A stretch of DNA of 64,000 bases from an uncultured virus (IMG/VR IMGVR_UViG_3300031857_021139). Taxonomy: Duplodnaviria > Heunggongvirae > Uroviricota > Caudoviricetes. Where the stretch lies: the IMG/VR virus record IMGVR_UViG_3300031857_021139; one strand, 5' to 3'. Shown one piece after another: positions 1,772 through 24,008 of the stretch; the stretch's first letter is position 1; each line of letters opens with the position of its first letter. A program made the translations under genes and the position numbers. Below the pieces are notes generated by a model. It was not told where the DNA came from, made no database searches, and worked only from the letters and a program-made list of their open reading frames with translations.

Positions 1772-2293
1772 TTAGATATGTTGTTCGTCGGGATTCCATT
1801 TGCGCCACCACTCTTCCCAAGGGAAAACTATCCACTGCGGTGTCTCAAATTTGTTTACCTGCTCTGCAGAATACGTGACTTCTATTTCATTGTGGCTGCT
1901 TTGATTGTCGTACAGCACTGCTACACGCACATTGCCTCCCCAGATCTGGGCCCAGGCAGTGTCATTAGGCAGATTAGATTCCTGCCAATCCTGGCGTATC
2001 CAGTTAAGGGTGGCTCCGGAATCGTTGATGTCATCCACGATCAATATTTTTTTGCCAACAAATGCATCTTCGGCCATCCAAGCATTGGTTTCGCATTGCT
2101 CATCGTCTCTCAGGCTGACTTTCAGCGCATGCATAGGCACTTCGAGATACTGGCTGATGAGATTTGCCGGAATCAATCCGCCACGGGTGATGCCAACCAC
2201 ATAATCGGGATGGAACTCGTCCAGGTACATCTGGCGTATGATTTCTTGGGTCTGTCGTTCGACATCCGACCAGTTTACATAGACTTTTTTCAT
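1772..2293 (-). CDS. Purine phosphoribosyltransferase (Gpt-like)
   Basis: VVGITRGGLIPA, the PRPP-binding motif ILIVDDINDSGAT, and C-terminal WIVFPWE. Confidence 0.85.
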   Translation of the reverse strand: MKKVYVNWSDVERQTQEIIRQMYLDEFHPDYVVGITRGGLIPANLISQYLEVPMHALKVSLRDDEQCETNAWMAEDAFVGKKILIVDDINDSGATLNWIRQDWQESNLPNDTAWAQIWGGNVRVAVLYDNQSSHNEIEVTYSAEQVNKFETPQWIVFPWEEWWRKWNPDEQHI

Positions 2294-3255
2294 CTCTTGC
2301 TCACGTCCACCATGCTGGAGATCCAACGATAGGTTTCAGTGAGTCCGTGTTCAAGGTTATCTGCGGGGGCCCAACCTATGGTTTCACGTATGAGTTGGTT
2401 GTGGCTGTTACGACCCATGACTCCCATAGGGCCGGGTATATTGGTTATGCGTACAGTCTTACCAGCCAGTTCAGCAATCAACAGGGCCAAATCATTGATA
2501 GATATCATGCGCTCAGATCCAAGATTCAGTGCTGATTCACAGTCCGATGCCTGTATTCGGTGTATGCCTTCTATGCATTCGTCGATGAACAAGAATGATC
2601 TCGTCTGTGTACCCGGCCCCCAGACTTCGACGTGTCCATCACTTTCTGCTACCTTGCGGCACAATGCGGCCGGAGCTTTTTCTTTGCCATTGTTCCATGC
2701 GCCCAAGGGGCCAAACACATTGTGCAGACGAGCGATGCGCACACGCAGACCATGGTTGCGGCCAAAGGCCATCCACATGCGTTCTGAGAACAGTTTTTCC
2801 CAACCATATTCGCTGTCAGGGTTGGCTGGATAGGCTGACTCTTCACTCAGCAAAGGATTGTCAGGATCCTCTTGATTGTGGCTGGGATACATGCAGGCCG
2901 ATGATGTGTAAAACACATTTTTTACTCCATGCTTGACCATGGCTTCTGCGATGTTGAGATTGATTAGGCTGGAGTTGTGCATGATGTCGGCATCGTTTTC
3001 ACCGGTAAAGATATAACCGGCACCGCCCATGTCTGCAGCCAACTGATACACAGTGCCAATGTCATGCTCATCAAAAATTCTGCGAACATTGGCTTGCTCT
3101 CGCAGATCCAACTGTAAAAACACATCAGCATCAGATTTGCCGTATTCGTGCATTTTGATGTCTACTCCAATGACATGATGTCCTTGTTTCTTTAGACTTG
3201 AGACCAGATGTCCGCCGATGAATCCACCGGCTCCGCAGACCAACATTGATTTCAT
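2290..3255 (-). CDS. NAD-dependent epimerase, GDP-mannose 3,5-epimerase-like
   Basis: GAGGFIG, LAADMGGAGYI, SSACMYP, YGWEK, EKAPAALCRK and GVMGRNS. Start at 3255 (ATGA overlap). Confidence 0.85.
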   Translation of the reverse strand: MKSMLVCGAGGFIGGHLVSSLKKQGHHVIGVDIKMHEYGKSDADVFLQLDLREQANVRRIFDEHDIGTVYQLAADMGGAGYIFTGENDADIMHNSSLINLNIAEAMVKHGVKNVFYTSSACMYPSHNQEDPDNPLLSEESAYPANPDSEYGWEKLFSERMWMAFGRNHGLRVRIARLHNVFGPLGAWNNGKEKAPAALCRKVAESDGHVEVWGPGTQTRSFLFIDECIEGIHRIQASDCESALNLGSERMISINDLALLIAELAGKTVRITNIPGPMGVMGRNSHNQLIRETIGWAPADNLEHGLTETYRWISSMVDVSKR

Positions 3256-4085
3256 TGTGATTTCTCCATTGCTTGTATTATACGCTCTATGCCCTGATCC
3301 AGCGACGTTTTTGGTTGCCAATATTGCCGGATCCAGAGATCTGGTTCGTTGCGGCGATCCTGCTGTACTGTGTCTTTGGCCAAGGCCGGTTGGATCTTGG
3401 TACCTGGATAGTGCCCGGCGATTATCTCGGCCACTTGTTGCATGCTGTGCCATTCAAAACTGGTGATATGATATTCTTTTTCACGAGGCAGATCAGAGTA
3501 AATCTGCGACAAGGTATATAGGGCTTCACTGCAGTCATCGGCGTACAGCATCTGGCGAAGTTCCGTACCATCAGTGCGCATATCGATCAATCTGGTATGG
3601 CGTGCTTTGTTGATGAAATCTGTGACCACATGTGTCTTGGCCGGATCGTGTTCTATACCATAGACATTCCAGAATTTCACAGTAACTCCTCCCAGGCTTT
3701 GGGTGAGTTTTTCAGCCAGACTTTTGGTCAGACCATAGGAGCTATAGCTCATATTAGCCATCTGGCTGGATGCAAACACAAAAGGCTTTTTGGCTTCATA
3801 AAGACAATCAAACACGTTGTGCATGATAGCCACATTGTTCATGATGAATTCATAGGTATCTTGATAGCGTGCTAGATATGCGCTGCCACCAACATCCCAG
3901 GCCAAGAAATACACAAAGTCGGCATGGTACAAGGCCTGGCGGAACGAAGAGTTATACAGTCTACGTAGGTCATATTTTAAACCGTCGGCGATGTCAAATT
4001 CTTGTATGCTATGACCTTGATCGCGAAGGTAGGCACAAAGACTGAGTCCGATCTGTCCGGCTGATCCCAGTACAAGATATTTCAT
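3252..4085 (-). CDS. NAD-dependent epimerase/dehydratase (extended SDR)
   Basis: GSAGQIG, YGLTK and NVYG motifs. Confidence 0.8.
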   Translation of the reverse strand: MKYLVLGSAGQIGLSLCAYLRDQGHSIQEFDIADGLKYDLRRLYNSSFRQALYHADFVYFLAWDVGGSAYLARYQDTYEFIMNNVAIMHNVFDCLYEAKKPFVFASSQMANMSYSSYGLTKSLAEKLTQSLGGVTVKFWNVYGIEHDPAKTHVVTDFINKARHTRLIDMRTDGTELRQMLYADDCSEALYTLSQIYSDLPREKEYHITSFEWHSMQQVAEIIAGHYPGTKIQPALAKDTVQQDRRNEPDLWIRQYWQPKTSLDQGIERIIQAMEKSQ

Positions 4086-4687
4086 TTGATGACCTTGTTC
4101 GATTTACGGCGCAACAATGTTAGGCCATGATTCACTGGCACTGTGGACCACTCCCATAGTTCTGGATCTAACTCAGCCACAGCCCGATATGGGCCACCAC
4201 CGGCCCATTGGGCATCCGTGGTTGTGGGATCGGATCGATAGTCAGGTTGGGCATTGGAGTACATTAGATCATGCAACAAGATGATAGAAGAAGGTGTGAT
4301 CATGTCCTGGATGATTGACAGTTCTCGAGACACATGTTCGTAGGCGTGCCAATCATCTACATACACCAGGTCATATTGGCCACCATCACTGCGACGCTGT
4401 TCTAACCAGGCGATAGCATCGCTTTGATAGAATTTCCAATACACACGTAGATCCTCTGGACACTCAAAGGTAGTAGGATCGAGATCCACACTGTGTACAA
4501 CGCCCCCGGTCTCTTTAGCCGCGCACAAGAATGGCAATGTGGTATTGCCAGTCCTTACGCCCAATTCTAAGATACGTTTTGCATGTATCTGCATGGCCAT
4601 GGCGAAGCAAGTGAGCAAATGCCGATCGCTGTCGGCTCCTCCATATTTCACTCGGTTCAAAAGAAATTGATAATATTCTAATCTCAT
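4082..4687 (-). CDS. Class I SAM-dependent methyltransferase
   Basis: ILELGVRTG, SVDLD, DLVYVDDWH and LLHD motifs. Confidence 0.8.
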   Translation of the reverse strand: MRLEYYQFLLNRVKYGGADSDRHLLTCFAMAMQIHAKRILELGVRTGNTTLPFLCAAKETGGVVHSVDLDPTTFECPEDLRVYWKFYQSDAIAWLEQRRSDGGQYDLVYVDDWHAYEHVSRELSIIQDMITPSSIILLHDLMYSNAQPDYRSDPTTTDAQWAGGGPYRAVAELDPELWEWSTVPVNHGLTLLRRKSNKVIK

Positions 4688-5595
4688 TGGGGGTCCTTAA
4701 TGATTTCTTCAAGGTCTTGGCCTTGCAATCCCCAGGCCGTGGTGCCACTGCGGCGACTTAGCTCAAGAATCTCTCTATGATCATAGGCCATGTCTTGTGC
4801 GCTACGTTGGTGATGTTGATGAAAAATACAGCATGGTGCCTGTACCACATGTTGTTTGACACCAGCCCAATGGAATCGGTACAGGCTGATGCTGTCTACA
4901 TGCCAGCGTCGATCCAGGCTTTCGTATAACCCACGCACGGTCCAAAATGTTTCTCGGCTGGCCAAAATAAAGTCGCCAGCACCGTTGGTGTGCATGATGT
5001 TGAGATCAACCTGTCCACGTGGCAACGACGATACATCACCTGCATGATTTACAGGGAGGCTTACGCTGGCGTTTTGCTCCATGCTGTGTACCACGAAACT
5101 ATGTTTTACTGCGTAATTTTCTATCTCTGCATCGTTGATTGCACTGATACCATCAGGTACGAAGTCATATCTATCGGTACGATACACTGTGTCGGTACGC
5201 AAAGGTCTGGTAGACAACCAATCGATCATGGCCTGGCTGAACACGATGTCGGGATTGGTAGCCAACACAAAATCACCACGGGCTCGTCTAATACCCACAT
5301 TCTTGCCGGCAAACTCTAGCACAGGCATGGTGGCGCCTATGGTCTCGTGTGTGTCACTGTCTACAGTGATGTATCGCACTGATATGTTGCGTGTGGCCGG
5401 TAATGCTTGACTCAGTGGCTCACGATCAGGCAAGGGATTCCATTCTACTATGACAAGTTCCATAAGATCAGGACATGCCCGTACTTGCCAATCCAAGTGA
5501 CGCAGGAATACCCTGAGTCTGCCTAAAAAGTCTTGTCCATAATCATCGTTGCGTCCTGTGATGACTACGGAGATGTAGGGAGTATTAGATGTCAA
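4684..5595 (-). CDS. GT-A fold glycosyltransferase (GT2-like)
   Basis: ISVVITGRND, KNVGIRRARGDFVLATNPD and GDFIL motifs. Confidence 0.75.
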   Translation of the reverse strand: MTSNTPYISVVITGRNDDYGQDFLGRLRVFLRHLDWQVRACPDLMELVIVEWNPLPDREPLSQALPATRNISVRYITVDSDTHETIGATMPVLEFAGKNVGIRRARGDFVLATNPDIVFSQAMIDWLSTRPLRTDTVYRTDRYDFVPDGISAINDAEIENYAVKHSFVVHSMEQNASVSLPVNHAGDVSSLPRGQVDLNIMHTNGAGDFILASRETFWTVRGLYESLDRRWHVDSISLYRFHWAGVKQHVVQAPCCIFHQHHQRSAQDMAYDHREILELSRRSGTTAWGLQGQDLEEIIKDPQ

Positions 5596-6755
5596 TTTAA
5601 CGTTATCTCAAAAAATTCTACGCCTTGGGCTATTAGATCTGATTTGCGTTCAAACTGTATGCGTTGACCAAATTTTTGATCAAGATCTTCGACTAATTCT
5701 GTAGGTATGAGATTGTTTTGTTGTACAAACACCGTGTGACCCTTTTGTAGAAGTTTGACACAGACCTGGAACTGCTGGCTCTCTTCCAATATGTCTGTCT
5801 CAGGCTTGTACATGATAGAAGGCATGTAGAATGGTAGAGACTTTGTGTTTTGTTTTTCTAACCAATCTACAAGGAAATTGGAATGAAATAGATTAAATTC
5901 ATCCACGATGTGACCCAATGGAAAGTCTAATCCCACACGTTGAGAATAGTGAGCAAAGGCACGATTGTCTCTGGGCAGGCACGGCCCTCCGTAGCCAAAT
6001 CCGAATCTCATATATTTAGACCCAATGCGAGAATCGCTACCTACGGCTGCGAGAGCAAGGTCCACATCTTCATCGAGACCGGAGCGGATTAGCACTTCTC
6101 CCAGCATGTTGGCATAGGAGATCTTGGTGGTGAGGAAACAGTTGGTGGCAATCTTGACCAGTTCCGCGGCTGTGATGCTCATGGCATGCACGTTGGGCCG
6201 GACGGTCTGTATATCATCGTACAGCAACTGATAAGCAGAGATCACTGAAGGATTCTCACCACCGATCAGAACCATGTCGGCATTTTGTAGATCTCGGATA
6301 ATGGATCCCTGGGCGATAAATTCAGGATTATACAGCACACTGATACCTTGAAATCTAAGACGATCCTGCACACGCTGGCAATCACCAGGATTGGTCGTGC
6401 AACCTATCACAAGGATCTTGCCAGAGATATCAAATTCACACTCGGCGATGTCTTGTACCACGCGATCCACTGCAGATATGTCATAACTGCCATCCGCGGC
6501 CGACGGTGTGGCTACCATGACATAGATCACTTCGCTGTGTTGGATCACGGCTCGCGTATCCGTGGTAAATTGTATTGACTTCTTGTGGGCCAGTAATTCA
6601 GCCACGCCAGGTTCCGTGGTCTGGATCTCACCGCGATTCAATGCTGCCACATAGTTAGTACGGATGTCTGATGCCATGACATCATGCCCGGCACGATCCA
6701 GCAACAGGGCGAAACAGATACCCAGGCGTCCGACGCCAATCACACCAATCTTCAT
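5592..6755 (-). CDS. ugd: UDP-glucose/GDP-mannose 6-dehydrogenase
   Basis: GVGRLG, YNPEF, AELVKIATN and the catalytic GYGGPCLPRD. Confidence 0.9.
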   Translation of the reverse strand: MKIGVIGVGRLGICFALLLDRAGHDVMASDIRTNYVAALNRGEIQTTEPGVAELLAHKKSIQFTTDTRAVIQHSEVIYVMVATPSAADGSYDISAVDRVVQDIAECEFDISGKILVIGCTTNPGDCQRVQDRLRFQGISVLYNPEFIAQGSIIRDLQNADMVLIGGENPSVISAYQLLYDDIQTVRPNVHAMSITAAELVKIATNCFLTTKISYANMLGEVLIRSGLDEDVDLALAAVGSDSRIGSKYMRFGFGYGGPCLPRDNRAFAHYSQRVGLDFPLGHIVDEFNLFHSNFLVDWLEKQNTKSLPFYMPSIMYKPETDILEESQQFQVCVKLLQKGHTVFVQQNNLIPTELVEDLDQKFGQRIQFERKSDLIAQGVEFFEITLN

Positions 6756-7534
6756 GTTTTCTCCGCTGTGATCATGAGATGCCACCCCAAGCGGCGTTCC
6801 AAAGCATGAAACATGTCATCGGACATAGTTTCAAACCAAGGTTGGCGTACATATTTTCCTTGTTTGTAAGGTTCTATCTGATAAGGAAATATGTGATCCT
6901 GTTCTACCGACATGATTTTAAACTCAGGACCAATCATGTTGATCAGTTGCTGTTGCGTATAGGTATGAGCGATAGGGCACCCATGTTGCGCTTCTGGCTG
7001 ATCCAGTCCGGCGTCGATCATAAAGTTTTTCCATGAGTTTGCGGCATAGACCATGACCTTGAGTGTAGTACCAGGATTCATATAATTTTTGGCTTCACGC
7101 AAAATAGCCATGGGGTTAGGGCTGTGATGTATCACGCCCCAGGTAAAAACCAGGTCATAAGGTTGTATAGGTACGAAGTCAGTAAGTTGTTCGGCATTGC
7201 CTTGAAAGAACCTACCCGTATAATTATAGACTTGGAATCTCTGCCGTGTAAGGTCCAGGCTTTCTTGGCTGAGTTCTATTCCTGTATAGTCAGCTCCAGC
7301 ACGGGCAAAGTTGATGGCCATGGTGCCGATGCCCGATCCAATCTCCAACACTCGCTTGTTATGCCAGCGATCGAATTCACAAAAGGCAGGAATGTGTGGT
7401 TCGGCTAAGAACTTTTTCTTCTCCACCTCATCAAAATATTCTTTTGTGCCAATGGGTTTGTCACTGTGTCTTACGTTGCATGGTCTGGCATCCCAATACC
7501 TCTGGACATCATCTATGGTCACGGTTGGTGCCAT
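6752..7534 (-). CDS. Class I SAM-dependent methyltransferase
   Basis: VLEIGSGIG and YDLVFTWGVIHH motifs. Confidence 0.85.
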   Translation of the reverse strand: MAPTVTIDDVQRYWDARPCNVRHSDKPIGTKEYFDEVEKKKFLAEPHIPAFCEFDRWHNKRVLEIGSGIGTMAINFARAGADYTGIELSQESLDLTRQRFQVYNYTGRFFQGNAEQLTDFVPIQPYDLVFTWGVIHHSPNPMAILREAKNYMNPGTTLKVMVYAANSWKNFMIDAGLDQPEAQHGCPIAHTYTQQQLINMIGPEFKIMSVEQDHIFPYQIEPYKQGKYVRQPWFETMSDDMFHALERRLGWHLMITAEKT

Positions 7535-8346
7535 CTTGGCTCCTGCCTTGCTATCTGTCGGTTAGGATCGTATTCTCGACTGCACATCTTTGCCCATGGA
7601 TCCTGTTTGCTTGCTAAAACATTTTCAAACCAACTCACATCTTCACCCTGTGTGCGCAGGTAATCCACGATACGTCCAGCATCATCAAATCTTTGCTTAC
7701 GGAAAGTGACATAGTTAAAATCCTTGGGATGATCTGGGCGGCCCTCCAGCATGGGCCGATTTTGGAATGTCTCATCATTGTTGTTGCCAGTGATGTCAAA
7801 CCTATCATGGGTGACTTGTACGTCAATGTTGTGTATGCGATCTATGAGATATCCCACTTGGCTTATCCAAGAATCCGTGAGTTGGTGAGGACTTAGATAT
7901 CCAAACATTTCGTACCATTTGCGAGGCACTATAGGAAATATAGCGTAGGGATGGCAATTGTGTGTGGGCATGCGTAGCACCCGAAATCCATCTACTTCCG
8001 TGATGCGTAGGTCCCAATCGTCGCTCTCCATGACAGCATCGTCGCCCCAGAAAAATAACCAGTGTCCCTGAGCATAAGAAGCCAAAGAATTGAGATATTC
8101 GTTGAGTCTTATGTAACCCAGGCGTTCGAATCCCAGGCAGGTAAATCTCGCACCTCGATCAGTGAGATTTGGCGCAATGTTGTTGTTGAAATAATCTATG
8201 CTTTCCGTATCATCATGATCAAAAGCCAGTAACATTTCTACCCTACTGATATCATGGGCACGATCTGCAAGGCTTAATAGGCTACGGCCTAAGATGTCGG
8301 TACGTCCCCGAGTGGGAAGTAATACAGAAATATCAGTTTTAAGCAA
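7519..8346 (-). CDS. GT-A fold glycosyltransferase (GT2-like)
   Basis: ISVLLPTRGR and FFWGDD (DxD-like). Start uncertain (TTG). Confidence 0.7.
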   Translation of the reverse strand: MLKTDISVLLPTRGRTDILGRSLLSLADRAHDISRVEMLLAFDHDDTESIDYFNNNIAPNLTDRGARFTCLGFERLGYIRLNEYLNSLASYAQGHWLFFWGDDAVMESDDWDLRITEVDGFRVLRMPTHNCHPYAIFPIVPRKWYEMFGYLSPHQLTDSWISQVGYLIDRIHNIDVQVTHDRFDITGNNNDETFQNRPMLEGRPDHPKDFNYVTFRKQRFDDAGRIVDYLRTQGEDVSWFENVLASKQDPWAKMCSREYDPNRQIARQEPRWHQP

Positions 8347-8842
8347 AGAGATCCTCGTTCCAATGTCTGTGACCTTCGCGATAGGCCATGTTTGATTGTG
8401 TTTCTCTTACTTCCACGCGATAGCACCACAGCCGATCGGCTTCGCTGGGTCCCCACATGTCAGGAATGTAAACTCCATTGACATATTTGTAAAGCATGTC
8501 CGCCAGGCCTTCGCAACCTAATCGTGGCAGGATGGTCAGTTTGGCCATTTTCTTTTCTTGTAAAAGTTTGAATGTATCCAATTCGGGATCATCTTGAGCT
8601 ACCAATAAAGTATGATCAAATTGATCTTCTAACGTGCTTTTGAGTTCTTTGAGACCACCGTAATCGGCAGCCCAGTTGCGCACGTCCAGATCGTCGGTGC
8701 CAAAATAAAACTTCATGGAGAAACTGTATCCATGTATGAGATTGCAATGGCTGTCGGCTCGCCATTGGCGATAAGCGCAGGGGAAAGCGTCATGATATTC
8801 TTTGGTACTGGTCCAGCGATAAGTCTTTGGTGTTTGATCCAC
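8339..8842 (-). CDS. queD: 6-carboxy-5,6,7,8-tetrahydropterin synthase
   Basis: CNLIHGY, DYGGLK, FDHTLL, GCE and VEVRET T-fold motifs. GTG start with AGGAG SD. Confidence 0.9.
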   Translation of the reverse strand: MDQTPKTYRWTSTKEYHDAFPCAYRQWRADSHCNLIHGYSFSMKFYFGTDDLDVRNWAADYGGLKELKSTLEDQFDHTLLVAQDDPELDTFKLLQEKKMAKLTILPRLGCEGLADMLYKYVNGVYIPDMWGPSEADRLWCYRVEVRETQSNMAYREGHRHWNEDLFA

Positions 8843-8851
8843 GATATGTCT

Positions 8852-8916
8852 CCTATGTTAGAGTTTAGCATAGGCGGCAGAGTTTGTAAAGCGGGATGAC
8901 GCCGAAAAGACCGCTG
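8852..8916 (-). ncRNA. Candidate preQ1-I-like riboswitch (H-type pseudoknot plus SD-sequestering hairpin) in the queD leader
   Basis: Minus-strand RNA: AGCGG-UCUUUUCGGCGUCAUC-CCGCU-UUACAAACUC-UGCCG-CCUAUGCUAAACUCUAACAUAGG-AG. It has a 5-bp P1, loop CGGCG complementary to UGCCG, and a CCUAUG/CAUAGG stem covering the SD. Confidence 0.55.
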
Positions 8917-8923
8917 TGAAAAG

Positions 8924-9322
8924 TTATTTATCTGTTGGGTTTTTATAATCTGGTTTTTTATAGTTGGCCTGTCCGGGTATCACGGCCCGTATCCCGCCCA
9001 CCGGATCTGGTGCATCACCATCTCTCCTGGGTATGAGATGTATGTGCGGATACATCACTGTCTGTCCGGCTGTGCTTCCCATATTCATGCCCACGTTGAA
9101 TCCCTGGCATACACCCTGCTGGACCAAAAAGTTGCCTAATTTATAGGCCTGCCGGAAGCATTCCGCCACATGGTCATTGTCGTCCTGGGCAGGAACAAAC
9201 AATCGGTGTCCTGTGGTCACTGGAAATTTATCAGTATAGACTTTGACCATGCCCAGATCCAATACCAGTTCTTTCCAGGGCACCCGGCCTTGGGCCTGGG
9301 CTTGTATCAAGGTATCTACCAT
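8924..9322 (-). CDS. HIT-family nucleotide hydrolase
   Basis: FPVTTGH and AGQTVMYPHIHLIPR (histidine triad). Confidence 0.9.
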   Translation of the reverse strand: MVDTLIQAQAQGRVPWKELVLDLGMVKVYTDKFPVTTGHRLFVPAQDDNDHVAECFRQAYKLGNFLVQQGVCQGFNVGMNMGSTAGQTVMYPHIHLIPRRDGDAPDPVGGIRAVIPGQANYKKPDYKNPTDK

Positions 9323-11682
9323 CTAACTTTGTAGTTTACAGATAAGTTGTATTGATTTTGAGATGTGGTCATTGCATTGATTTGCATGCGTGAACGTCGC
9401 GTGATGTCATGATGATAAGACATGCGAGCATAACCAACTGTGGGGCTTATAAGATCGGCTCGGACTTGGCTGTACCTTATCTGTCCTTGGATGTCAACTG
9501 AAGTTGGCAGGGTAAGATCTACTGATCCATCTATAACTTTAGGCAAGGTGCCACCATAAACTCTGAAGTTAGACCACTCATGCCCTGCTTCGGTCCATAC
9601 AGCCGTGATAGGATTGATACGTGAAACCAGACCTTTTTCTATCTCTGTTGCGGTATACATGACCCCAACCTTGCCTACCCATCCTTGTTGCCTATGAGTG
9701 ATCGTAGACTCAATAGTGGTCGAACTCTGTACACGTCCCCAACTGCCTGATATTTGCACATAAGGATTGAATGGCATGCGAGCAAACTGGAGATTAAGTC
9801 GGGTATCTTTATAAACATCCATGTCAGTGATTCCCATGAACATGGTGCTATTGTCACTGGATGAACTGACTTTGAACTTTTGATATCTGGCGCTGGTCAT
9901 GTTTAGTACCTGCGCAGATCTGGTGTCATCATCGTCCATGTTGTCTGTATAACGATTCCACAGGTTGTTGCTGTTATAACTGGTTGGACTGTAATTCACT
10001 GTGAAATCTCTGCCCAGGCTGTCAACGGCCTTGATCGCATTGGCCGATCCAGCGATGTTGACTCCGGTGATGCTGCCATTGATCGGGCGCAGGCCACCGG
10101 CCACGGGTATACTCAATGCGCCCACAGGACTCAAGGCCTTGCTGGGATCCAGCAGTTTCATACCAAACCAAGACGTAGAACTGGTGCTGAGCACAGCATT
10201 GACCTGGGCATCGCTCATCCAGGGCCAGGTCTGCTTGACCAAAGCCGCCGTGGCCTGGGCATTGGGCGTGACTGCTCCTAACTTGCTGAGATATACAGCC
10301 TTTTGTTGTGCGCCATTTGTGGTATAGGTCACTGCCGTGGCCAGGTACATGGCGCCATCAGGTCCTTGTACAAACACCACGCCATTGGCACCGTTGATCA
10401 CCGAAGCATTGACTGCCCGTTCGAGATCCTGTGCTTGATCTTGGAAGGCCTTGAGCACCGCGGCATAACTGGCCACATACTTGTGCTCACTGGTATGAAT
10501 CAGCACCTGGCTGCCTGCGTTGCTGTCCCAGTTGGGACTGCTGAGCACGATATCTGTGAGTCCGTCGGAGTTCACGTCGGCCAACACAGGATTGTAACTG
10601 GCCGGAGTTGATGTGTCATAGTTGACCAAGACAGTATCGGTCACGTCAGTGAACACGCCGCCACCGTGGTTTTTAAGGAACTGCACTTCGCTGAACGCAG
10701 GATAGGTACCATTCTTTTCTGGCCTGCTGATGATCACTGCCGAGGTCCGGCCCGATGCATCAAAGTCAAAGGCCAAGGCACGGATATCATGACTGCTGGT
10801 GAAACCCTGGCTGCTCCATTTAGGTAACAAGAAACGTGGTGTGGGCAAGGTAGTGATCTCGTTGATCAGCAATCTATCCAGGCCTGCTTGTATGGTCCAA
10901 CTGTACAGTCGGTTGCCGCCGGCTGGCGTATCAGTGATTATCATAGAACTGCCGCCGGTGCCCATGAAGTCGCCCACAGATACTCCCGATCCGCCACCTA
11001 CCCAGCTTTGATTGGTGTAGGATTGGAATGTACCGTCACCACGCCCAAAATGGATCATGGTGTCTGATCTATGGCTCAAAGCCAAGATGTCTGATCGGCC
11101 ATCTCCGTTGATATCATAGATGGCGCTGTCGGCCACAGCGATATTGTTGACATTGGCAATGTCAGTGCGTGAAAATCTTCCACCTTGATTGATGAACACA
11201 GACATAGGACCATACACTGCGGTATCTGTATATGTGCCAATGAACATGTCATTGCGACCATCACCGTTGAAATCTGCAAATTTGACCTGGCTCTCGCTGC
11301 CTTGGATGCGATTATCTGTGCCAGAGAACCAGGAAGTGGTCTTGTTGGTCAGAGACCCATTGTCCCAACCAAAGATCTGCACGTCGTATTCGTGATAGGC
11401 CTGCCCATTCACTGGAGACATGCGTCCCACCATGACCACTTCTTGTTGGGTGCCGCCGGATAGGTTGTTACTGAACAATGCAGTGTTATCGTATCTGGCG
11501 CTTGTAGTGTTTAGCGGCTGTACTGTGCCAACTCGAGTGGGTGTATGGTATGGCACATTGTAGTTTGTGCTGGCACGCTGATATGATGGTGAGCCTCCTC
11601 CACCTCCACCTCCACAGCCCGTCAATACGAGACCCACGGCCACGGCTATGATTGTGGGACGCAGAACTGGGTTTGCTTGCAT
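9316..11682 (-). CDS. Lipoprotein with FG-GAP/VCBS repeats and a probable C-terminal beta-barrel (autotransporter-like)
   Basis: Lipobox LTGC followed by a poly-Gly run. Repeats DFNGDGRND, DINGDGRSD and DVNSDGLTD. Ends in the amphipathic strand YNLSVNYKVRW. Confidence 0.7.
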   Translation of the reverse strand: MQANPVLRPTIIAVAVGLVLTGCGGGGGGGSPSYQRASTNYNVPYHTPTRVGTVQPLNTTSARYDNTALFSNNLSGGTQQEVVMVGRMSPVNGQAYHEYDVQIFGWDNGSLTNKTTSWFSGTDNRIQGSESQVKFADFNGDGRNDMFIGTYTDTAVYGPMSVFINQGGRFSRTDIANVNNIAVADSAIYDINGDGRSDILALSHRSDTMIHFGRGDGTFQSYTNQSWVGGGSGVSVGDFMGTGGSSMIITDTPAGGNRLYSWTIQAGLDRLLINEITTLPTPRFLLPKWSSQGFTSSHDIRALAFDFDASGRTSAVIISRPEKNGTYPAFSEVQFLKNHGGGVFTDVTDTVLVNYDTSTPASYNPVLADVNSDGLTDIVLSSPNWDSNAGSQVLIHTSEHKYVASYAAVLKAFQDQAQDLERAVNASVINGANGVVFVQGPDGAMYLATAVTYTTNGAQQKAVYLSKLGAVTPNAQATAALVKQTWPWMSDAQVNAVLSTSSTSWFGMKLLDPSKALSPVGALSIPVAGGLRPINGSITGVNIAGSANAIKAVDSLGRDFTVNYSPTSYNSNNLWNRYTDNMDDDDTRSAQVLNMTSARYQKFKVSSSSDNSTMFMGITDMDVYKDTRLNLQFARMPFNPYVQISGSWGRVQSSTTIESTITHRQQGWVGKVGVMYTATEIEKGLVSRINPITAVWTEAGHEWSNFRVYGGTLPKVIDGSVDLTLPTSVDIQGQIRYSQVRADLISPTVGYARMSYHHDITRRSRMQINAMTTSQNQYNLSVNYKVRW

Positions 11683-11759: not shown

Positions 11760-12614
11760 TTACCTGGGGGCAAAATCCTGCTGTAATTTGATGTTGTCGG
11801 TGAACTCTTTTTTCACCGCAGGATCTGACCGGAAAGCACCATGAAGCACAGTGGTTTGGGTAAGGCTGGAATGGGCCATGATGCCACGATTCTCACAGCA
11901 ACCATGCGTGGCTTGGATATACACGCCCACATCCTTGCTATCAGTGGCCTTCATGATCTCTCGGGCGATGTCGTTGCAGAGTTCTTCTTGGAGTGTACCA
12001 CGACGGGCGCACCATTGTGCGATGCGTGTGTATTTGCTGAGTCCGATCAATTTCTGTGCCGCAAGGATGCCAATATAGGCAACGCCAACAACGGGTTGAT
12101 GATGATGGCTGCACATACTACGAAGTTCACTACGCACCACGAGCATGCCTTCATAACGGTCTGCTGAGTCGTTTGGAAAGGCTGTGCAATCTGGTGCCGG
12201 ATCGTATCTACCGCCCATGATTTCGTTGAAGTACATCTTGGCCAAGCGTCGTGCGGTGCCCTTGGAGTTAGGATCGTTTTCACGATCAATCAGCAATCGA
12301 TCTAACACAGTTTCAAATGCTTCTGCGGCTTCGTCGATTAGTTTCTCTTTATCTTGTTCGCTGACATAGTCGCTGATATTATCGCCAGCCCAAAAACGTT
12401 TTTTGTCACGTTTCATTTTAAAGCGAATTGCATCACCTAAGTATGATTCTTGATAACCGCCATCACCACTCATGGCATCTAAAGCTGTGGCGTCTTCATA
12501 ACCCGGTTGGTAAGGCGCCGCGGCTACCAGCGGATTTTGTTTAAGTGTGTCAAATGTATCTTTACTGGTAGCAGTAAGAGAGTTTTCCAGGTCTTCTGAT
12601 GTAAATGTTGTCAA
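11760..12614 (-). CDS. folE: GTP cyclohydrolase I with an N-terminal extension
   Basis: TARRLAKMY, SMCSHH, GLSKYTR, LQEEL and HGCCENRG motifs. Confidence 0.95.
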   Translation of the reverse strand: MTTFTSEDLENSLTATSKDTFDTLKQNPLVAAAPYQPGYEDATALDAMSGDGGYQESYLGDAIRFKMKRDKKRFWAGDNISDYVSEQDKEKLIDEAAEAFETVLDRLLIDRENDPNSKGTARRLAKMYFNEIMGGRYDPAPDCTAFPNDSADRYEGMLVVRSELRSMCSHHHQPVVGVAYIGILAAQKLIGLSKYTRIAQWCARRGTLQEELCNDIAREIMKATDSKDVGVYIQATHGCCENRGIMAHSSLTQTTVLHGAFRSDPAVKKEFTDNIKLQQDFAPR

Positions 12615-12659: not shown

Positions 12660-12688
12660 ATTGTAAGATCTTATTTAGACCTTGTCAA
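12660..12688 (-). promoter_or_regulatory. Sigma70 promoter with an embedded TAAATA late motif upstream of folE
   Basis: TTGACA-17 nt-TACAAT; the spacer contains CTAAATA. Confidence 0.75.
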
Positions 12689-13266
12689 ACATTTAATGAA
12701 ATTAGACGACAATCCGGATAGGTCACAGTTTGGCATTGTGGTATCACTGTGCCCAAGCGTTGTCTTGCCAGGGCCACGGTTTCCAGAGTGGGGCAGTAGT
12801 GCCATCCAGGCGAGAATACAGCCTGATTGATCCAAGGACTCACTGCCAAATCTCTCCCATCAGATCGCATGCGACTGAGATGATAATGTGCGATTTGATC
12901 GTCCAGCAAGATAGCACCACATTTGCCAACGCTGAGAGGTTTTTCATAACCAAAACTCAGGCACTGTACCTGTCCTGGTCGGAACATGCCGGGTTCCAAC
13001 CTACGTGCTGAATCCCAGATGTTGGTGCCGTGGAATTGATATTCTCCCGACCATGTTTCGTCGACAAGAGAGTAGTCAATACCAAGGTTGAGCATGGTCT
13101 GTGGAATGCTTAGATAAGTGTAGGCCGTAAATTCTACTTTTTTAATCTGATACCATCGCATGACCAACTCTATAGCATGAGTACACCCATCTGTCAATAC
13201 CACATAGGGCGAACCTGTGTATGCACCCAGTTCGTCTTCAAGATCAAACAGACTGCTAAAACTCAT
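12685..13266 (-). CDS. DegT/DnrJ/EryC1/StrS-like PLP aminotransferase (short form)
   Basis: DGCTHAIEL, WDSA and CLSFGYEKPLSVGKCGAIL motifs. Confidence 0.7.
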   Translation of the reverse strand: MSFSSLFDLEDELGAYTGSPYVVLTDGCTHAIELVMRWYQIKKVEFTAYTYLSIPQTMLNLGIDYSLVDETWSGEYQFHGTNIWDSARRLEPGMFRPGQVQCLSFGYEKPLSVGKCGAILLDDQIAHYHLSRMRSDGRDLAVSPWINQAVFSPGWHYCPTLETVALARQRLGTVIPQCQTVTYPDCRLISLNV

Positions 13267-14216
13267 TGATTATACCAATTCCATGCATGTGCTACCATGT
13301 CATTGAGCGTAAATCTCGGTCGAGTACCAGATACTGTCTGCCAACGATCAGATGATGCTGTGAGCATGGCAGGATCTCCCAGTCGACGCGAGCCCACTGA
13401 TACTGTAACTGTTTTGCCGGTCACTTGCTGTGCCATGGCTATGACTTCTCGGTTGCTTATACCTTGTTTGGTACCAAGATTATATGTGTCTGCTGGAATG
13501 TCTTTGTTCATGGCTGCTACATGGGCATCAGCAATATCTTCCACATGCACATAATCTCTCACGCAGGTCCCATCTGGGGTATCATAGTCATCGCCGTTGA
13601 GGATGAATTCTTTGTTGTCACGTATGGCTTCTAACACCCTGGCGATGATGTGAGTGGCTCCAGATTTCTGACCATGCCGTGCTTGGCTGTCAGCACCGCA
13701 GGCATTGAAATATCTCAAGGCCACAAAGTCGAGGTTGTATGCGTGCTTGTAGCTTTGCAACATCCATTCAACCATAAGTTTGCTTTGCCCATAGGGGCTG
13801 ATTGGCTCACAAGGATCCACCTCACTGCATGGATTGATCACTGGTTCGCCGTAACATGCTGCCGAACTGCTGAATATCACCCGAGTGTTGATTTTGTTAT
13901 CAACTATGAAATCTAATAATTTTTTTGTTTTGACGAAGTTGTTGTTATAGTAATCAGCTGGTCGTCCCAAACTGGGTCCAACCAGACTTGAACCGGCACA
14001 ATGTACCACGGCCTCTGGTGTAAATTGGTGTAAGAGATCCAGGGCATACGGGTTGCTGAAATCTTCTTGATAGAATCTGTCAGCCACAGATCCAAGATTC
14101 TTTGGGCAGACCACAGTGTCTACACCAATGACCGTGTGGCCTTGGTCTTTGAGACGCAACATGGTTTCTCCACCAATGAATCCACCGGCGCCAGTGACAA
14201 GCACTGTTTTTCTCAT
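13263..14216 (-). CDS. galE: UDP-glucose 4-epimerase
   Basis: TGAGGFIG, FSSSAACYG, PYGQSK, LRYFNACGA and DGTCVRDYVHV motifs. Confidence 0.9.
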   Translation of the reverse strand: MRKTVLVTGAGGFIGGETMLRLKDQGHTVIGVDTVVCPKNLGSVADRFYQEDFSNPYALDLLHQFTPEAVVHCAGSSLVGPSLGRPADYYNNNFVKTKKLLDFIVDNKINTRVIFSSSAACYGEPVINPCSEVDPCEPISPYGQSKLMVEWMLQSYKHAYNLDFVALRYFNACGADSQARHGQKSGATHIIARVLEAIRDNKEFILNGDDYDTPDGTCVRDYVHVEDIADAHVAAMNKDIPADTYNLGTKQGISNREVIAMAQQVTGKTVTVSVGSRRLGDPAMLTASSDRWQTVSGTRPRFTLNDMVAHAWNWYNQ

Positions 14217-15433
14217 GCTTGTGCTCCAAGTTTGACCACATGGTATTTGTTGCCGGGTACATGATCACGGTAACGATTTCCCGAACGGTTCCACTGTTCA
14301 CCTTGACCTTGTATGATGTCTACCACACGATCTACAGTGCCGTTGTTCCAATCGGATATTAGGCCCATGTTGTGATGTTGACGGTCCAGAAGTTGTTCTA
14401 ACTTGGCAAAGGCATCATCTATCGACCAAGGAACATAGAGTCGGTCAGGATCGTTGGCAAAGGTTTCAGGGAAACTGCGATAAGCAGGATATAACACATT
14501 ACAACCAAGAGTATCGGCTTCTGATACTGTGTTAGATACCCAGTCTTGTAGAGCACAATTAAAAAGCACACGAGTATCGTTGAGAAGAGCGTAGTAGTCA
14601 TTTTTCTGTAAGTTCTCGTAGATATGGAGATGTCCTTGATTGGACATGTCCCGGGCACGTCGCACGTACTCGGGATTGTTGCTCCTCAAAGGACCTCCCT
14701 GGAAGAGAGCAAACTCAATGTAGTTGCGATGACGGCCTTGTCGGAGATACATGTCGATCAAGTCCATGAAAAAGCCTGGTTGTTTCTCTTGATCAAAGCG
14801 TGCGGCAAAGCCCACACGCATTTTACGCTGATCAAAAGGTTGGATCTTTTCACTGCCGCCAACTCGTTCCAGCACTTCTGATTTGCCAAACGCCAGGCCT
14901 GAAATATTGTAGATAGGCGCGGTCCAGCCTGCGACACGCATGTGGGCGACCATTTCTTCATTGGTGGCCAATACATGCACATTAGGTATCTGGTTGACCA
15001 TGCGCTCATAAGTGCTCATCCAGCCGGCCATGTTCCATACATGCACGAAATCATCTGGATCGATGGCCTGTGCTAAACAGCGCACGAATATCCGGGGGCG
15101 CAGATTTTCAGGCACTTGATCCAGGATATATGGCAGGCTCTCGATACCGGGCTGGAACATGTCTTCAAAGTACACAACATCTTCTGCTGTGACATCACCT
15201 TGTTGCATGAGTCGTACCAAGTTCATCATCTGGCTCATGGCAAAGTAACTGCGACCGTGTGCATCCAACACCTGGCCCACAGAGATCTTTTTGCTGTTGT
15301 CGAGATTTAATCCGGGCACATACACCACATCCAAGGCCCGACGATCAAACACACGCCGATTCCATTCTGTGAGTTGTAGGGTATAACGAGCCTCGTAAGA
15401 CTCTAACCCCATATAAAATAACTTACGCATCAT
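14213..15433 (-). CDS. GT-B fold glycosyltransferase
   Basis: C-terminal ARFDQEKQP and ALQDWVSNTVSEADTLGC..LYP resemble a GT-B nucleotide-sugar-binding region. Confidence 0.65.
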   Translation of the reverse strand: MMRKLFYMGLESYEARYTLQLTEWNRRVFDRRALDVVYVPGLNLDNSKKISVGQVLDAHGRSYFAMSQMMNLVRLMQQGDVTAEDVVYFEDMFQPGIESLPYILDQVPENLRPRIFVRCLAQAIDPDDFVHVWNMAGWMSTYERMVNQIPNVHVLATNEEMVAHMRVAGWTAPIYNISGLAFGKSEVLERVGGSEKIQPFDQRKMRVGFAARFDQEKQPGFFMDLIDMYLRQGRHRNYIEFALFQGGPLRSNNPEYVRRARDMSNQGHLHIYENLQKNDYYALLNDTRVLFNCALQDWVSNTVSEADTLGCNVLYPAYRSFPETFANDPDRLYVPWSIDDAFAKLEQLLDRQHHNMGLISDWNNGTVDRVVDIIQGQGEQWNRSGNRYRDHVPGNKYHVVKLGAQA

Positions 15434-15645
15434 CGACTCCTGCGATTGGAGTCTTGTATCCACATATCCTTGGCGAACTTGCCTTGCACATGCTTGTTGA
15501 ACTGTTGGTAAGCGTAACTTTTCCAGTTATATAGGTCAGCCTCATTGTATCGATAACCAAAATCTTGGCAAAAAAGCTGGAATTGCTCGAGGTCTTCGAA
15601 GATGGCTCGCACTCGAGGGTTGGGTTTGAACGTGGGTTTGGCCAT
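15430..15645 (-). CDS. Hypothetical protein
   Basis: ORF MAKPTFKPNPR... with an upstream GAAGGA SD, coupled to the downstream gene. Confidence 0.65.
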   Translation of the reverse strand: MAKPTFKPNPRVRAIFEDLEQFQLFCQDFGYRYNEADLYNWKSYAYQQFNKHVQGKFAKDMWIQDSNRRSR

Positions 15646-19185: not shown

Positions 19186-20113
19186 TGGGTTTAGCCAAAG
19201 TTTGTCCGGCTTTGAGGCTGATCGCAGACCCAGGTTTGGTAGCTTCTACCCAGGTACATGCACGATCGAGCACGCGATAATCTCGGATCACGTAGCCCAG
19301 AGATTCGCATAGGCTGCGCAACAACCGTCCTGGTGTGTATGTCATGTAGTGTCGTTCGGCATTGGCCACGGCCCCGGACCGGTCACAGTCATTGAAGGTG
19401 AATGCCACAGTACCGCCAGGTCGCAGTTTGATCATGATCTCTGACAGATAACTCTTGATCACTTCCCACGGTTTGTAATGGAAAAAGTTGTAGGCCAAAC
19501 AGAATCCAATCTGTCCGTCGGGGATAGCTTGTAACCAAGGCTCGGGTCCGCGTTCCCACAAGGTAGTCCAACGCAGGCGATTGTTGTACACAGGGTTGAA
19601 ATAGTCTTTGATATGGGCCAAGAGATCATGTGATTCATCCACGAGATACAGTGGATCGCAGGCAACCATGTAATGTATCCATTGTTCTCGCCCAGGCCTG
19701 ATGATCATGCCAGCATAGTGGAAGTCGCTGAAAAATTGCGCTCTGCTGATAAGAAATTCTTCTTGCTCAGGAGAAAGATTGAACCTGCGGCCAAGCACAT
19801 GCTCGGCAGTGTCATGAACCATTTCTTTTTCATAGAGATCATACGAGGCACGGAAGTATTCGCGTTCTTGTTGTTCGATGTCCAGTTGTAACTGTTGTTT
19901 GAATTCTAACAGCCGTTGGTCAAAGTTGGCCACGGAATCATAAACTGCTTGCAAAGACGTTTCCAAGATGAACTGCTGATCCGGAGCACGCCATGGGTGT
20001 TCCTGCACGGTGTGGATCACATGCCCATGGTTTTGAGAAAAGTATTGGCTGACTTCTCTGGGAGTGATGCCCTCCAGTTGCTCTTTGTATCGTACCAGTT
20101 CGCTGAGTTTCAT
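19169..20113 (-). CDS. Protein with a C-terminal methyltransferase-like domain
   Basis: IPDGQIGFCLAYNFFHY and LRPGGTVAF resemble class I MTase motifs, but motif I is degenerate. Confidence 0.5.
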   Translation of the reverse strand: MKLSELVRYKEQLEGITPREVSQYFSQNHGHVIHTVQEHPWRAPDQQFILETSLQAVYDSVANFDQRLLEFKQQLQLDIEQQEREYFRASYDLYEKEMVHDTAEHVLGRRFNLSPEQEEFLISRAQFFSDFHYAGMIIRPGREQWIHYMVACDPLYLVDESHDLLAHIKDYFNPVYNNRLRWTTLWERGPEPWLQAIPDGQIGFCLAYNFFHYKPWEVIKSYLSEIMIKLRPGGTVAFTFNDCDRSGAVANAERHYMTYTPGRLLRSLCESLGYVIRDYRVLDRACTWVEATKPGSAISLKAGQTLAKPIDKSK

Positions 20114-23168: not shown

Positions 23169-24008
23169 CTATTTAAATTTCACCGTTTTGGTATGATCCA
23201 ACATGCTCATGTGATCTTTTGATGAAGGACACTGCCGGCATATAGCATGTGGCTTGCCAAAATTGTTGATAAATTTATCAAGTTCACGATCACTGCAATC
23301 AGAATCCAGCCCTTTGGTCAAATAAGGTTGCCAGAGAGCCGAATTGGGCATTCCGTGCCTTTGCACTATCTTGGGCGTGAGACCCGCTGTGCCGCATTTG
23401 TAAAGGCGTGAGTCGTGTAGCAAAGGGCATCGCTGTTGCACACAGACATCGAACGCATCATGTATATTGTTGTCATGGGGTCTCATGTCATGATAATCAC
23501 CCTGGAAGGTCTTTAAGAAACGTGTAGGTGATGCAATCTGAAAACGCATGCCCGACGGCGAATGCCATCGGTCAATGCCAAACTCTTTGATCGCGACCCA
23601 TTTTCGGCTGGCAAACACTTGAGATATAGCCGAATCTATGCGCGGATCATTGACATGCTTGCTAATTTTCAGCACTGAATTACCAAGTTGATCAAGCAGA
23701 TCTACAACCCACCAGTGACGTTCTAACAAAAGACCATTGGTTATAAAACGTATCTGTGTGTTTGGCATGAGTTCTCTGATTCCTACGAGCCACGCACGCA
23801 AATCTGGATTGATCAGAGGTTCTCCCCCCATGAATCCAAATGCCTGTATGTCCAGTCTTTCCAACCAAGGTTCAATCTGCTGTCGGGCCTGCGCCCAGGT
23901 CATGTATCCACGATGATCCAGGTCTGAAAAAGTGGTGCATCCAGCACAACTAAGGTTACACACGTTAGTAGACATCATTTCCAGAAATGGCAACATTCGA
24001 CGTGTCAT
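23169..24008 (-). CDS. Radical SAM protein with a C-terminal Cys cluster
   Basis: CNLSCAGC, GGEPLINP and TNGLLL; later CVQQRC, YKC and CRQC. Confidence 0.9.
   Translation of the reverse strand: MTRRMLPFLEMMSTNVCNLSCAGCTTFSDLDHRGYMTWAQARQQIEPWLERLDIQAFGFMGGEPLINPDLRAWLVGIRELMPNTQIRFITNGLLLERHWWVVDLLDQLGNSVLKISKHVNDPRIDSAISQVFASRKWVAIKEFGIDRWHSPSGMRFQIASPTRFLKTFQGDYHDMRPHDNNIHDAFDVCVQQRCPLLHDSRLYKCGTAGLTPKIVQRHGMPNSALWQPYLTKGLDSDCSDRELDKFINNFGKPHAICRQCPSSKDHMSMLDHTKTVKFK

Follow-up and report, generated by a model that had tools for sequence, protein, structure and literature searches.

The 64,000-nucleotide stretch analyzed here, called the window below, comes from an uncultured virus of the class Caudoviricetes (IMG/VR record IMGVR_UViG_3300031857_021139). 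All of its long open reading frames (ORFs) lie on the minus strand, and it is phage-like, with many matches to PHROG families. A queD-like gene and the HIT-family ORF upstream of it are separated by an 81-nucleotide gap (8843 to 8923, minus strand), and this queD leader is the subject of the present study. An original prediction, made from the letters alone, had read it as a variant of the class I prequeuosine-1 (preQ1-I) riboswitch that exerts feedback control on phage deazaguanine synthesis. We conclude that the leader is a conserved, structured RNA and that it is probably the aptamer of a translational riboswitch, a phage-restricted candidate which resembles preQ1-I and is nevertheless distinct from it. 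The proposed setting among que genes was borne out, as the window carries folE, queD, a queE fragment, and a yhhQ-like transporter gene, which together point to 7-deazaguanine synthesis.

The core elements of the leader lie between 8873 and 8915 (Table 1). Every element that the original prediction had named, i.e., the TAAATA box, the AGCGG/CCGCU stem, the UGCCG segment, the CCUAUG...CAUAGG hairpin, and the AGGAG Shine-Dalgarno (SD) sequence, was found in its place on the minus strand, and both of the loop-tail pairings that it had proposed, CGGCG with UGCCG (register A) and GGCG with CGCC (register B), can form. The 5-bp stem is designated P1 and the loop-tail helix P2; L1, L2, and L3 are the segments that connect them. 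By analogy with the specificity C of preQ1-I aptamers, C8895 at the end of the P1 loop is a candidate ligand-pairing base. The hairpin that covers the SD sequence has a predicted stability of -4.8 kcal/mol, which drops to 0.0 without its two C:G pairs. No terminator-like site was found in the leader region. Rfam matches to RT-12 (15 bits) and sR17 (8.9 bits), both on the opposite strand, were dismissed as chance.

Table 1. Elements of the queD leader and annotated genes of the window
Feature	Position	Strand	Details
TAAATA, -10-like box	8925-8930	minus	ends 9 nt 5' of the stem; shares bases with the stop of the HIT-family ORF
P1, 5' strand, AGCGG	8911-8915	minus	5-bp stem with CCGCU
P1 loop, UCUUUUCGGCGUCAUC	8895-8910	minus	16 nt, ending in C
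L1, UCUUUUC	8904-8910	minus	C8909 in 98% of relatives
P2, 5' strand, GGCG	8900-8903	minus	within the P1 loop
L2, UCAUC	8895-8899	minus	C8895 invariant in 57/57 unique aptamers (protein-selected set); adjoins the P1 3' strand
P1, 3' strand, CCGCU	8890-8894	minus	
A-rich part of L3, UUACAAAC	8882-8889	minus	A8887, A8885, and A8883 invariant
UCUGC, unpaired block	8877-8881	minus	U8881, C8880, G8878, and C8877 invariant
P2, 3' strand, CGCC	8873-8876	minus	last two C's also begin the SD hairpin
UGCCG, tail segment of the alternative register	8875-8879	minus	
SD-covering hairpin, CCUAUG-CUAAACUCUAA-CAUAGG	8852-8874	minus	arms 8874-8869 and 8857-8852; covers AGG of AGGAG
Shine-Dalgarno, AGGAG	8850-8854	minus	7 nt from the start codon
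Sigma-70-like pattern inside the element, TTTACA-17 nt-TAAACT	8862-8890	minus	9/12 matches; TG before the -10
QueE homologue, first 106 residues	8-349	minus	cut by the window edge; 46% identity to a relative's 280-aa QueE-like protein
yhhQ-like queuosine-precursor transporter, YhhQ/Vut_1 type	1152-1835	minus	PF02592, 5.9e-23; TIGR00697, 115 bits (cut-off 51)
queD-like gene, PTPS family	8339-8842	minus	PF01242, 1.5e-15; phrog_2389, 3.4e-36; GTG start 8842-8840; active-site motif CNLIHGY
HIT-family ORF	8924-9322	minus	directly upstream of the leader; TAA stop 8926-8924
folE	11760-12614	minus	PF01227, 1.5e-38
Family-B DNA polymerase	20110-22776	minus	

The conserved structured leader emerges from comparison among relatives and not from the fold of a single sequence. 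IMG/VR was searched with the QueD protein alone and no RNA criterion; 591 relatives were confirmed, and the best 80 (86 to 92% identity) were kept. The same motif was visible in the raw upstream sequences of these protein-selected loci, whatever gene lay upstream. In one of them (L049), a methyltransferase gene stands between motif and queD. A covariance model built from relatives (R1) gave a single match of 24 to 67 bits, always on the queD strand, in 78 of the 80 loci; the two loci without a match have only 38 nucleotides of upstream sequence (L050) or none (L054). Among the matches, one is cut by a contig end (L007) and one is weak at 29.6 bits (L061). Both were recovered by R1, as were two loci (L068 and L072) that failed a motif finder requiring all five P1 pairs. 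That finder accepted 187 of 201 sources, corresponding to 136 unique aptamers. In the window itself, R1 scored 64 bits at 8868 to 8918, with the next best match in 64 kb at 10.8 bits, and a 22-nucleotide core pattern occurred once against 0.00 expected. Five large relatives, two of them 98 to 100% complete at 353 and 382 kb, yielded one R1 match each (52 to 62 bits), with all remaining scores at or below 16 bits. This single copy per 64-kb window and per genome led us to reject the idea of a repeated phage promoter or terminator. The protein-selected set yielded 57 unique full-length aptamers, in which twelve positions were invariant (C8895, C8894, C8893, A8887, A8885, A8883, U8881, C8880, G8878, C8877, G8875, and C8873), and eleven further positions were at least 90% conserved. 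UCUGC stays constant while P1 varies and is therefore not paired with P1.

The search was extended with a degenerate 23-nucleotide pattern of the 3' half of the motif, which matched at least 120 further IMG/VR stretches; 80 were taken with their flanks. The counts that follow refer to the matches listed. The true motif was present in 78 of the 80 flanked stretches, the other two (L097 and L098) being chance matches. The first downstream ORF was QueD-like in 76 of 77 loci, with identities to the QueD-like protein of the window of 30 to 90% (median 59%, n = 76); in L153, a cupin gene lies between motif and queD. When the viral matches to the pattern were scored for complementarity of the 5' arm of P1, all five bases fitted in 111 of 120, four in 6, and three in 3. 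The same pattern, run against genome contigs of 185,579 cellular species, matched at least 121 stretches. Only 9 of 122 matches in bacterial and archaeal genomes had the full 5' arm, and one of these was a true motif, located on a 5.5-kb contig in a Bacteroidetes bin (L255). No bacterial home for the motif was found among the cellular-genome matches listed. The closest cultured QueD-like proteins, those of Acidovorax phage ACP17 (53% identity) and Xanthomonas phage X1, are encoded without such a leader, their queD overlapping or abutting the preceding ORF.

Both helices of the pseudoknot covary. P1 appears in relatives as AGUGG/CCACU, ACCGG/CCGGU, AGAGG/CCUCU, and AUCGG/CCGAU, with double changes at three positions (CG/AU/UA, GC/CG/UA, and AU/UA), and it was predicted by RNAalifold unaided. 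P2 pairing played no part in the selection of sequences. Duplexes between each loop and its own tail averaged -5.71 kcal/mol, a value that none of 500 permutations reached, compared with -4.27 ± 0.16 kcal/mol for permuted partners. In a sub-alignment of 79 sequences, P2 comprises five pairs (columns 18 to 22 with 48 to 52) with 87.7% of cells paired, and at four of these pairs both partners vary (for example, AU 31, GC 21, and GU 11). For P1 and P2 taken together, 93.9% of cells are paired in register compared with 34 to 58% when the strands are slid, and no shuffle in 500 reached the score. Within the subgroup of the window (57 sequences), register B has 79.4% of cells paired, and its fourth pair occurs as AU 26, GC 15, CG 2, GU 2, and UA 1. 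Register B alone also fits relatives with GACAU:AUGUC, GACUU:AAGUC, or GGCAU:AUGCC, where it pairs perfectly. In the alignments, covariation favors the GGCG:CGCC register.

The bases just after UCUGC also pair with the ribosome site. Duplexes within the same leader averaged -8.45, again a value that none of 500 permutations reached, compared with -6.73 ± 0.15 for permuted partners. By their expression platforms, 151 unique leaders fell into class a (85, including the window), class b (54), class c (9), and other (3). Class a leaders place CCUAUG/CAUAGG over the AGG of the SD sequence, with six of six pairs in 82 of the 85. In class b, NGYCAUC pairs with positions -1 to +5 around the AUG; at least 52 of 53 leaders have six contiguous pairs here (-1 to +4), with CG/UA/AU and UG/UA/CG exchanges. 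In class c, AUGUCU pairs with AGACAU in the SD region. All three designs use the 3' strand of P2 in the hiding helix, and because this strand is at the same time the 5' strand of that helix, pseudoknot and hiding helix are mutually exclusive. When the P2 strands were withdrawn in a nearest-neighbor model, the probability that the class b start codon is unpaired rose from 0.02 to 0.46, an effect seen in 53 of 53 leaders. With P1, P2, and the hiding helix all covarying and 78 of 80 loci carrying the motif, the conserved pseudoknot upstream of queD in the original prediction is supported.

These data are consistent with the following mechanism. The leader would fold into P1 (AGCGG/CCGCU) and P2 (loop GGCG with tail CGCC), with the junction lined by conserved unpaired bases. 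The 3' strand of P2 would double as the 5' strand of the helix by which the ribosome binding site (RBS) is hidden; this helix covers the SD sequence in the window and the start codon in many relatives. A ligand that stabilizes the pseudoknot would then free the ribosome site and turn on translation of queD and, in loci that have them downstream, of queE or the yhhQ-like gene. That pseudoknot formation opens the ribosome site, an ON response, is well modeled for the start-codon-hiding relatives. For the family as a whole, ON has the best support; for the SD-hairpin design of the window, the direction is ambiguous.

It should be noted that a number of observations weigh against this reading. Taken as a single sequence, the leader folds no better than chance, with a minimum free energy of -16.4 kcal/mol compared with -15.05 ± 2.97 kcal/mol for shuffled sequences (z = -0.45), and 67 of 200 shuffles fold as well. 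No Rfam family matched the leader at its gathering score in a scan of the whole window, and no preQ1 or tetrahydrofolate (THF) model matched 401- and 86-nucleotide stretches at E ≤ 10. The preQ1-I model RF00522, run alone on the genomes of five relatives, scored at most 15 bits (gathering score, 39 bits), with no match at the motif. The aligned rows represent related phages and not independent events, and P1 pairing percentages of the sub-alignments are partly circular because the finder demanded five of five pairs, the pattern-only counts being unbiased. A contiguous 3-bp P2 at the anchored place is absent from 38 of the 136 unique aptamers, which need a bulge, mismatch, or shift. Register A is itself 73.7% paired in the subgroup of the window, with AU/GC/GU exchanges at one pair. 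The class a hairpin shows two-sided change at pair 6 only (GC 74, AU 6, and GU 5), and in the window P2 and the SD hairpin share just two bases. In the nearest-neighbor model, withdrawal of the P2 strands opened 28 of the 85 class a leaders, closed 24, and left 33 unchanged; for the window, the SD sequence remained covered (from 0.37 to 0.34) and the freedom of the start codon fell from 0.25 to 0.06. Whereas L1 of preQ1-I aptamers starts with a conserved U (UU in types I and III) that reads N9 of the ligand (PMC11625349), the first L1 base of the motif varies (U, C, or A; the commonest at 44%) and the next is C in 98%. Transcripts started at the promoter-like pattern inside the element (Table 1) would lack the aptamer, so an aptamer-free transcript may exist. 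Finally, for a biosynthetic gene an ON response to an end product would be surprising.

The SD sequence of the window is not opened in the model because other weak pairings replace the hairpin. In the loop of the SD hairpin (8858 to 8868, minus strand), a CUCU is able to base-pair with the GGAG of the SD sequence once the C:G pairs of the hairpin are lost, and this window-specific loop explains why the model leaves the site closed. An SD sequence that stays closed when P2 forms would also suit an ordinary feedback OFF switch of preQ1-I type, in which a CGGCG:UGCCG pseudoknot stacks on the SD hairpin and stabilizes it, so that queD is repressed when 7-deazaguanine is plentiful. The register required for this, which does not invade the SD hairpin, is present in the window, end-product repression suits a biosynthetic gene, and all known preQ1 classes are OFF switches before queuosine genes (PMC11625349). 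However, register A leaves one pair open in 32 of 57 rows and fails for the loops GACAU, GACUU, and GGCAU, and in classes b (54 leaders) and c (9 leaders) the 3' strand of P2 shares 3 to 5 bases with the hiding helix, so that the two cannot coexist. The motif also goes unrecognized by the Rfam preQ1 models. We consider such an OFF switch quite improbable. The end-product feedback put forward in the original prediction is not supported: the better-supported GGCG:CGCC pairing shares two C's with the SD hairpin, and the start-codon-hiding relatives point to ON.

Promoter-like sequences were found on either side of the start of P1. A TAA[AG]TA box ends 3 to 14 nucleotides upstream of the stem in 90 of 161 unique upstream sequences, compared with 5.9 in shuffles (maximum, 13), and a TATAAT box ends at the same distance in 25 of 161, compared with 3.2 in shuffles. 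Several relatives have a full TTGACA-17-TATAAT arrangement upstream of P1. The TAAATA box appears to be a promoter element, and since this -10-like box stands just 5' of P1, the aptamer would lie at the 5' end of the transcript. The second, internal arrangement of sigma-70 type raises the question of whether the conservation might act at the DNA level, with the TTTACA-17-TAAACT promoter and its flanking inverted repeats serving as a protein operator. The scan match at 8890 to 8862 is mirrored by a -35/-10-like pair in 74 of 85 class a leaders, where the hairpin loop often reads TATAAT. Yet the pattern is missing from all 54 class b leaders and found in one of the 9 of class c, where L3 and UCUGC are nonetheless the same; as it is absent from class b, it cannot explain the shared core. 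Chance alone would supply 0.6 such sites in a region of this size, and covariation over long range, between loop and tail and between tail and start codon, would be meaningless for a promoter. Both P2 and the hiding helix contain many G-U pairs, which are mismatches in DNA, and together with the strict strand specificity these pairs point to conservation at the RNA rather than the DNA level. A purely DNA-level explanation is thus very improbable, and an internal promoter may coexist with the RNA element.

The data directly support a conserved motif in single copy per genome, its association with one kind of gene, and covariation in all three helices (P1, P2, and the one that hides the ribosome site). 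A small molecule is likely to bind the leader. It would probably present a guanine-like face, and candidates are a 7-deazaguanine such as preQ1, preQ0, or 7-carboxy-7-deazaguanine (CDG) and the pterins that occur as intermediates in this pathway. Covariation speaks for structure and is silent on a ligand, and the leader might alternatively be read as the operator of a phage or host RNA-binding protein (for example, a translational repressor or the QueD-like protein itself), as an RNA thermometer, or as a constitutive element whose two competing helices set translation rate and mRNA stability. ACP17, whose QueD-like protein is the most similar among cultured relatives, carries an annotated translational repressor of the RegA type; confinement to one phage group and one gene is frequent among protein operators, and ON logic fits an end-product ligand poorly. 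On the other hand, the 12 invariant positions are mostly unpaired bases at the interface of P1 and P2, kept before QueD-like proteins down to 30% identity, as is typical of a ligand pocket. They copy the pocket arrangement of preQ1-I, with a closing G-C pair, an adjacent invariant C, and an A-rich L3, and three platforms attached to one aptamer core display the modularity typical of riboswitches. A structured leader that binds no small molecule therefore seems unlikely to us. In its most far-reaching form, the riboswitch reading describes a phage-restricted class whose pseudoknot would be of a new architecture, either descended from preQ1-I or convergent with it. Such an RNA would sense a 7-deazaguanine or a pterin intermediate and switch translation of the phage's queD, queE, and yhhQ-like genes ON, so that a jumbo phage tunes its supply of queuosine precursor to the metabolic state of the infected cell. 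We put this forward tentatively, as a possibility that falls somewhat short of being probable.

The genes that follow the motif belong largely to the same pathway. The gene immediately after queD is queE-like in 14 loci and yhhQ-like in 5, and in one relative (G008) the operon order is motif, queD, a radical-SAM gene, and queE. The intervening gene of G008 is a 365-amino-acid, Cys-rich, radical-SAM-like ORF (L338, 1615 to 2712, minus strand). By annotation, the phage has folE, queD, and queE. A radical-SAM gene of the window at 23169 to 24008 was considered as QueE and rejected. Five relatives, including two that are 98 to 100% complete, showed neither QueC, nor tRNA-guanine transglycosylase (TGT)/DpdA (PF01702), nor DUF6610; the only QueC matches covered the PP-loop N terminus of a 310-amino-acid protein and were discarded. 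Divergent DpdA families exist (PMC10516641), and DpdA3-type enzymes may escape the models used. A link to deazaguanine modification of phage DNA thus appears to lack support in these gene sets, given that the two nearly complete relatives show no QueC, TGT/DpdA, or DUF6610. All but one of 78 downstream proteins examined contain CxxxHGY, the exception being the cupin of L153, and the QueD-like protein of ACP17 has it as well. A solved QueD aligns HGH where the motif-linked proteins have CxxxHGY; with HGY in place of HGH, the exact reaction of the QueD-like enzyme is therefore not certain.

In its wider surroundings, queD is embedded in a long run of sugar-nucleotide genes on one strand (2290 to 8346 and 12685 to 15463, minus strand). 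This block comprises three NAD-dependent sugar epimerases/dehydratases, a UDP-glucose dehydrogenase, a DegT-like aminotransferase fragment, a glycosyltransferase-like gene, and two methyltransferases, and it may be a glycan or hypermodification module. A glycosyltransferase-like gene of 276 amino acids directly follows queD in 22 related loci. Between folE and the HIT-family gene lies a gene (9316 to 11682, minus strand) for a 788-amino-acid protein with FG-GAP/VCBS-type repeats, which is unusual in a metabolic block; its N terminus carries a lipoprotein-like signal with a run of glycines after the Cys. No near DNA match to the window was found among 50,697 phage records. Parts of the stretch occur in 20 of 22 listed sequencing runs, one of which is an RNA library with a small share. 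Contigs of this RNA run span queD and the leader of relatives; they cannot show transcription, transcript ends, or strand, and no conclusion was drawn from them.

The motif is abundant (at least 120 IMG/VR pattern stretches and 591 confirmed QueD relatives), single-copy, and gene-specific, and at about 50 nucleotides it is small enough for direct biochemical and structural study. Riboswitches have rarely been identified in bacteriophage genomes, and phages may favor undiscovered classes (PMC5473149); if our reading is true, the motif would be such a class. We found no description of a phage preQ1 or queD riboswitch, of a fourth preQ1 class, or of an ON-acting preQ1 switch in the literature searched, which lay mostly outside subscription journals. 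Should a 7-deazaguanine be bound, no earlier riboswitch for that ligand family would act as an ON switch, and the motif would show how a preQ1-I-like pocket can be rewired; should a pterin or another guanine-like compound be bound, it would represent a new ligand class. Either ligand would make it testable why large phages carry folE, queD, queE, and a transporter gene without recognizable QueC or DNA transglycosylase.

Among known systems, the closest counterpart is preQ1-I (RF00522). Its aptamers are H-type pseudoknots with a strictly conserved specificity C before the 3' strand of P1, and the base on its 5' side is U in type I and A in types II and III; a conserved G-C pair closes P1, L3 is A-rich, and P2 contains bases of the SD sequence (PMC11625349). 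The motif likewise forms an H-type pseudoknot from a 5-bp P1 and a P2 between P1 loop and 3' tail. Its invariant C8895 stands 5' of the 3' strand of P1 and is mostly preceded by U, in the manner of type I. P1 is closed by a G-C pair (C8894 and C8893 invariant and G8911 at 98% in the 57 unique aptamers), an A-rich stretch with three invariant A's follows P1, and the whole leads into queuosine/7-deazaguanine genes (queD, queE, and yhhQ-like). There are also differences. L3 of the motif measures 13 to 14 nucleotides compared with about 6 to 8, and it includes the invariant UCUGC, which has no counterpart in preQ1-I; the P1 loop is longer (13 to 19 nucleotides). The SD sequence lies about 20 nucleotides downstream of P2, the 3' strand of P2 is the anti-RBS strand, and the predicted logic is ON. 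Unlike preQ1-I, the motif was found only in uncultured phage contigs. Of the variant preQ1-I aptamer originally proposed, the pseudoknot, the 5-bp stem, the loop-terminal C, the A-rich tail, and the SD hairpin stood, and membership in the preQ1 families of Rfam, whose models gave no match, did not.

In its predicted logic, the motif resembles the adenine-sensing add riboswitch. This is a translational ON switch in which a purine aptamer built on a three-way junction captures the anti-RBS strand. The motif shares with add the competition between aptamer pairing and a helix that hides the SD sequence or start codon, but it is a pseudoknot of about 50 nucleotides with a different conserved core. 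THF-I and THF-II (the folE motif) are small RNAs that precede GTP-cyclohydrolase and pterin genes and read the guanine-like face of a pterin; substrate and product of QueD are pterins too. THF-II folds as a plain hairpin interrupted by an internal loop, and the known THF switches are OFF. The motif differs from THF-II in being a pseudoknot, and no Rfam THF model matched it. Like riboswitches in general, it combines a single conserved aptamer with several expression platforms, each of which pairs at the expense of an aptamer helix. The motif was not filed under RF00522; it would combine a preQ1-I-like pocket with a reversed platform.

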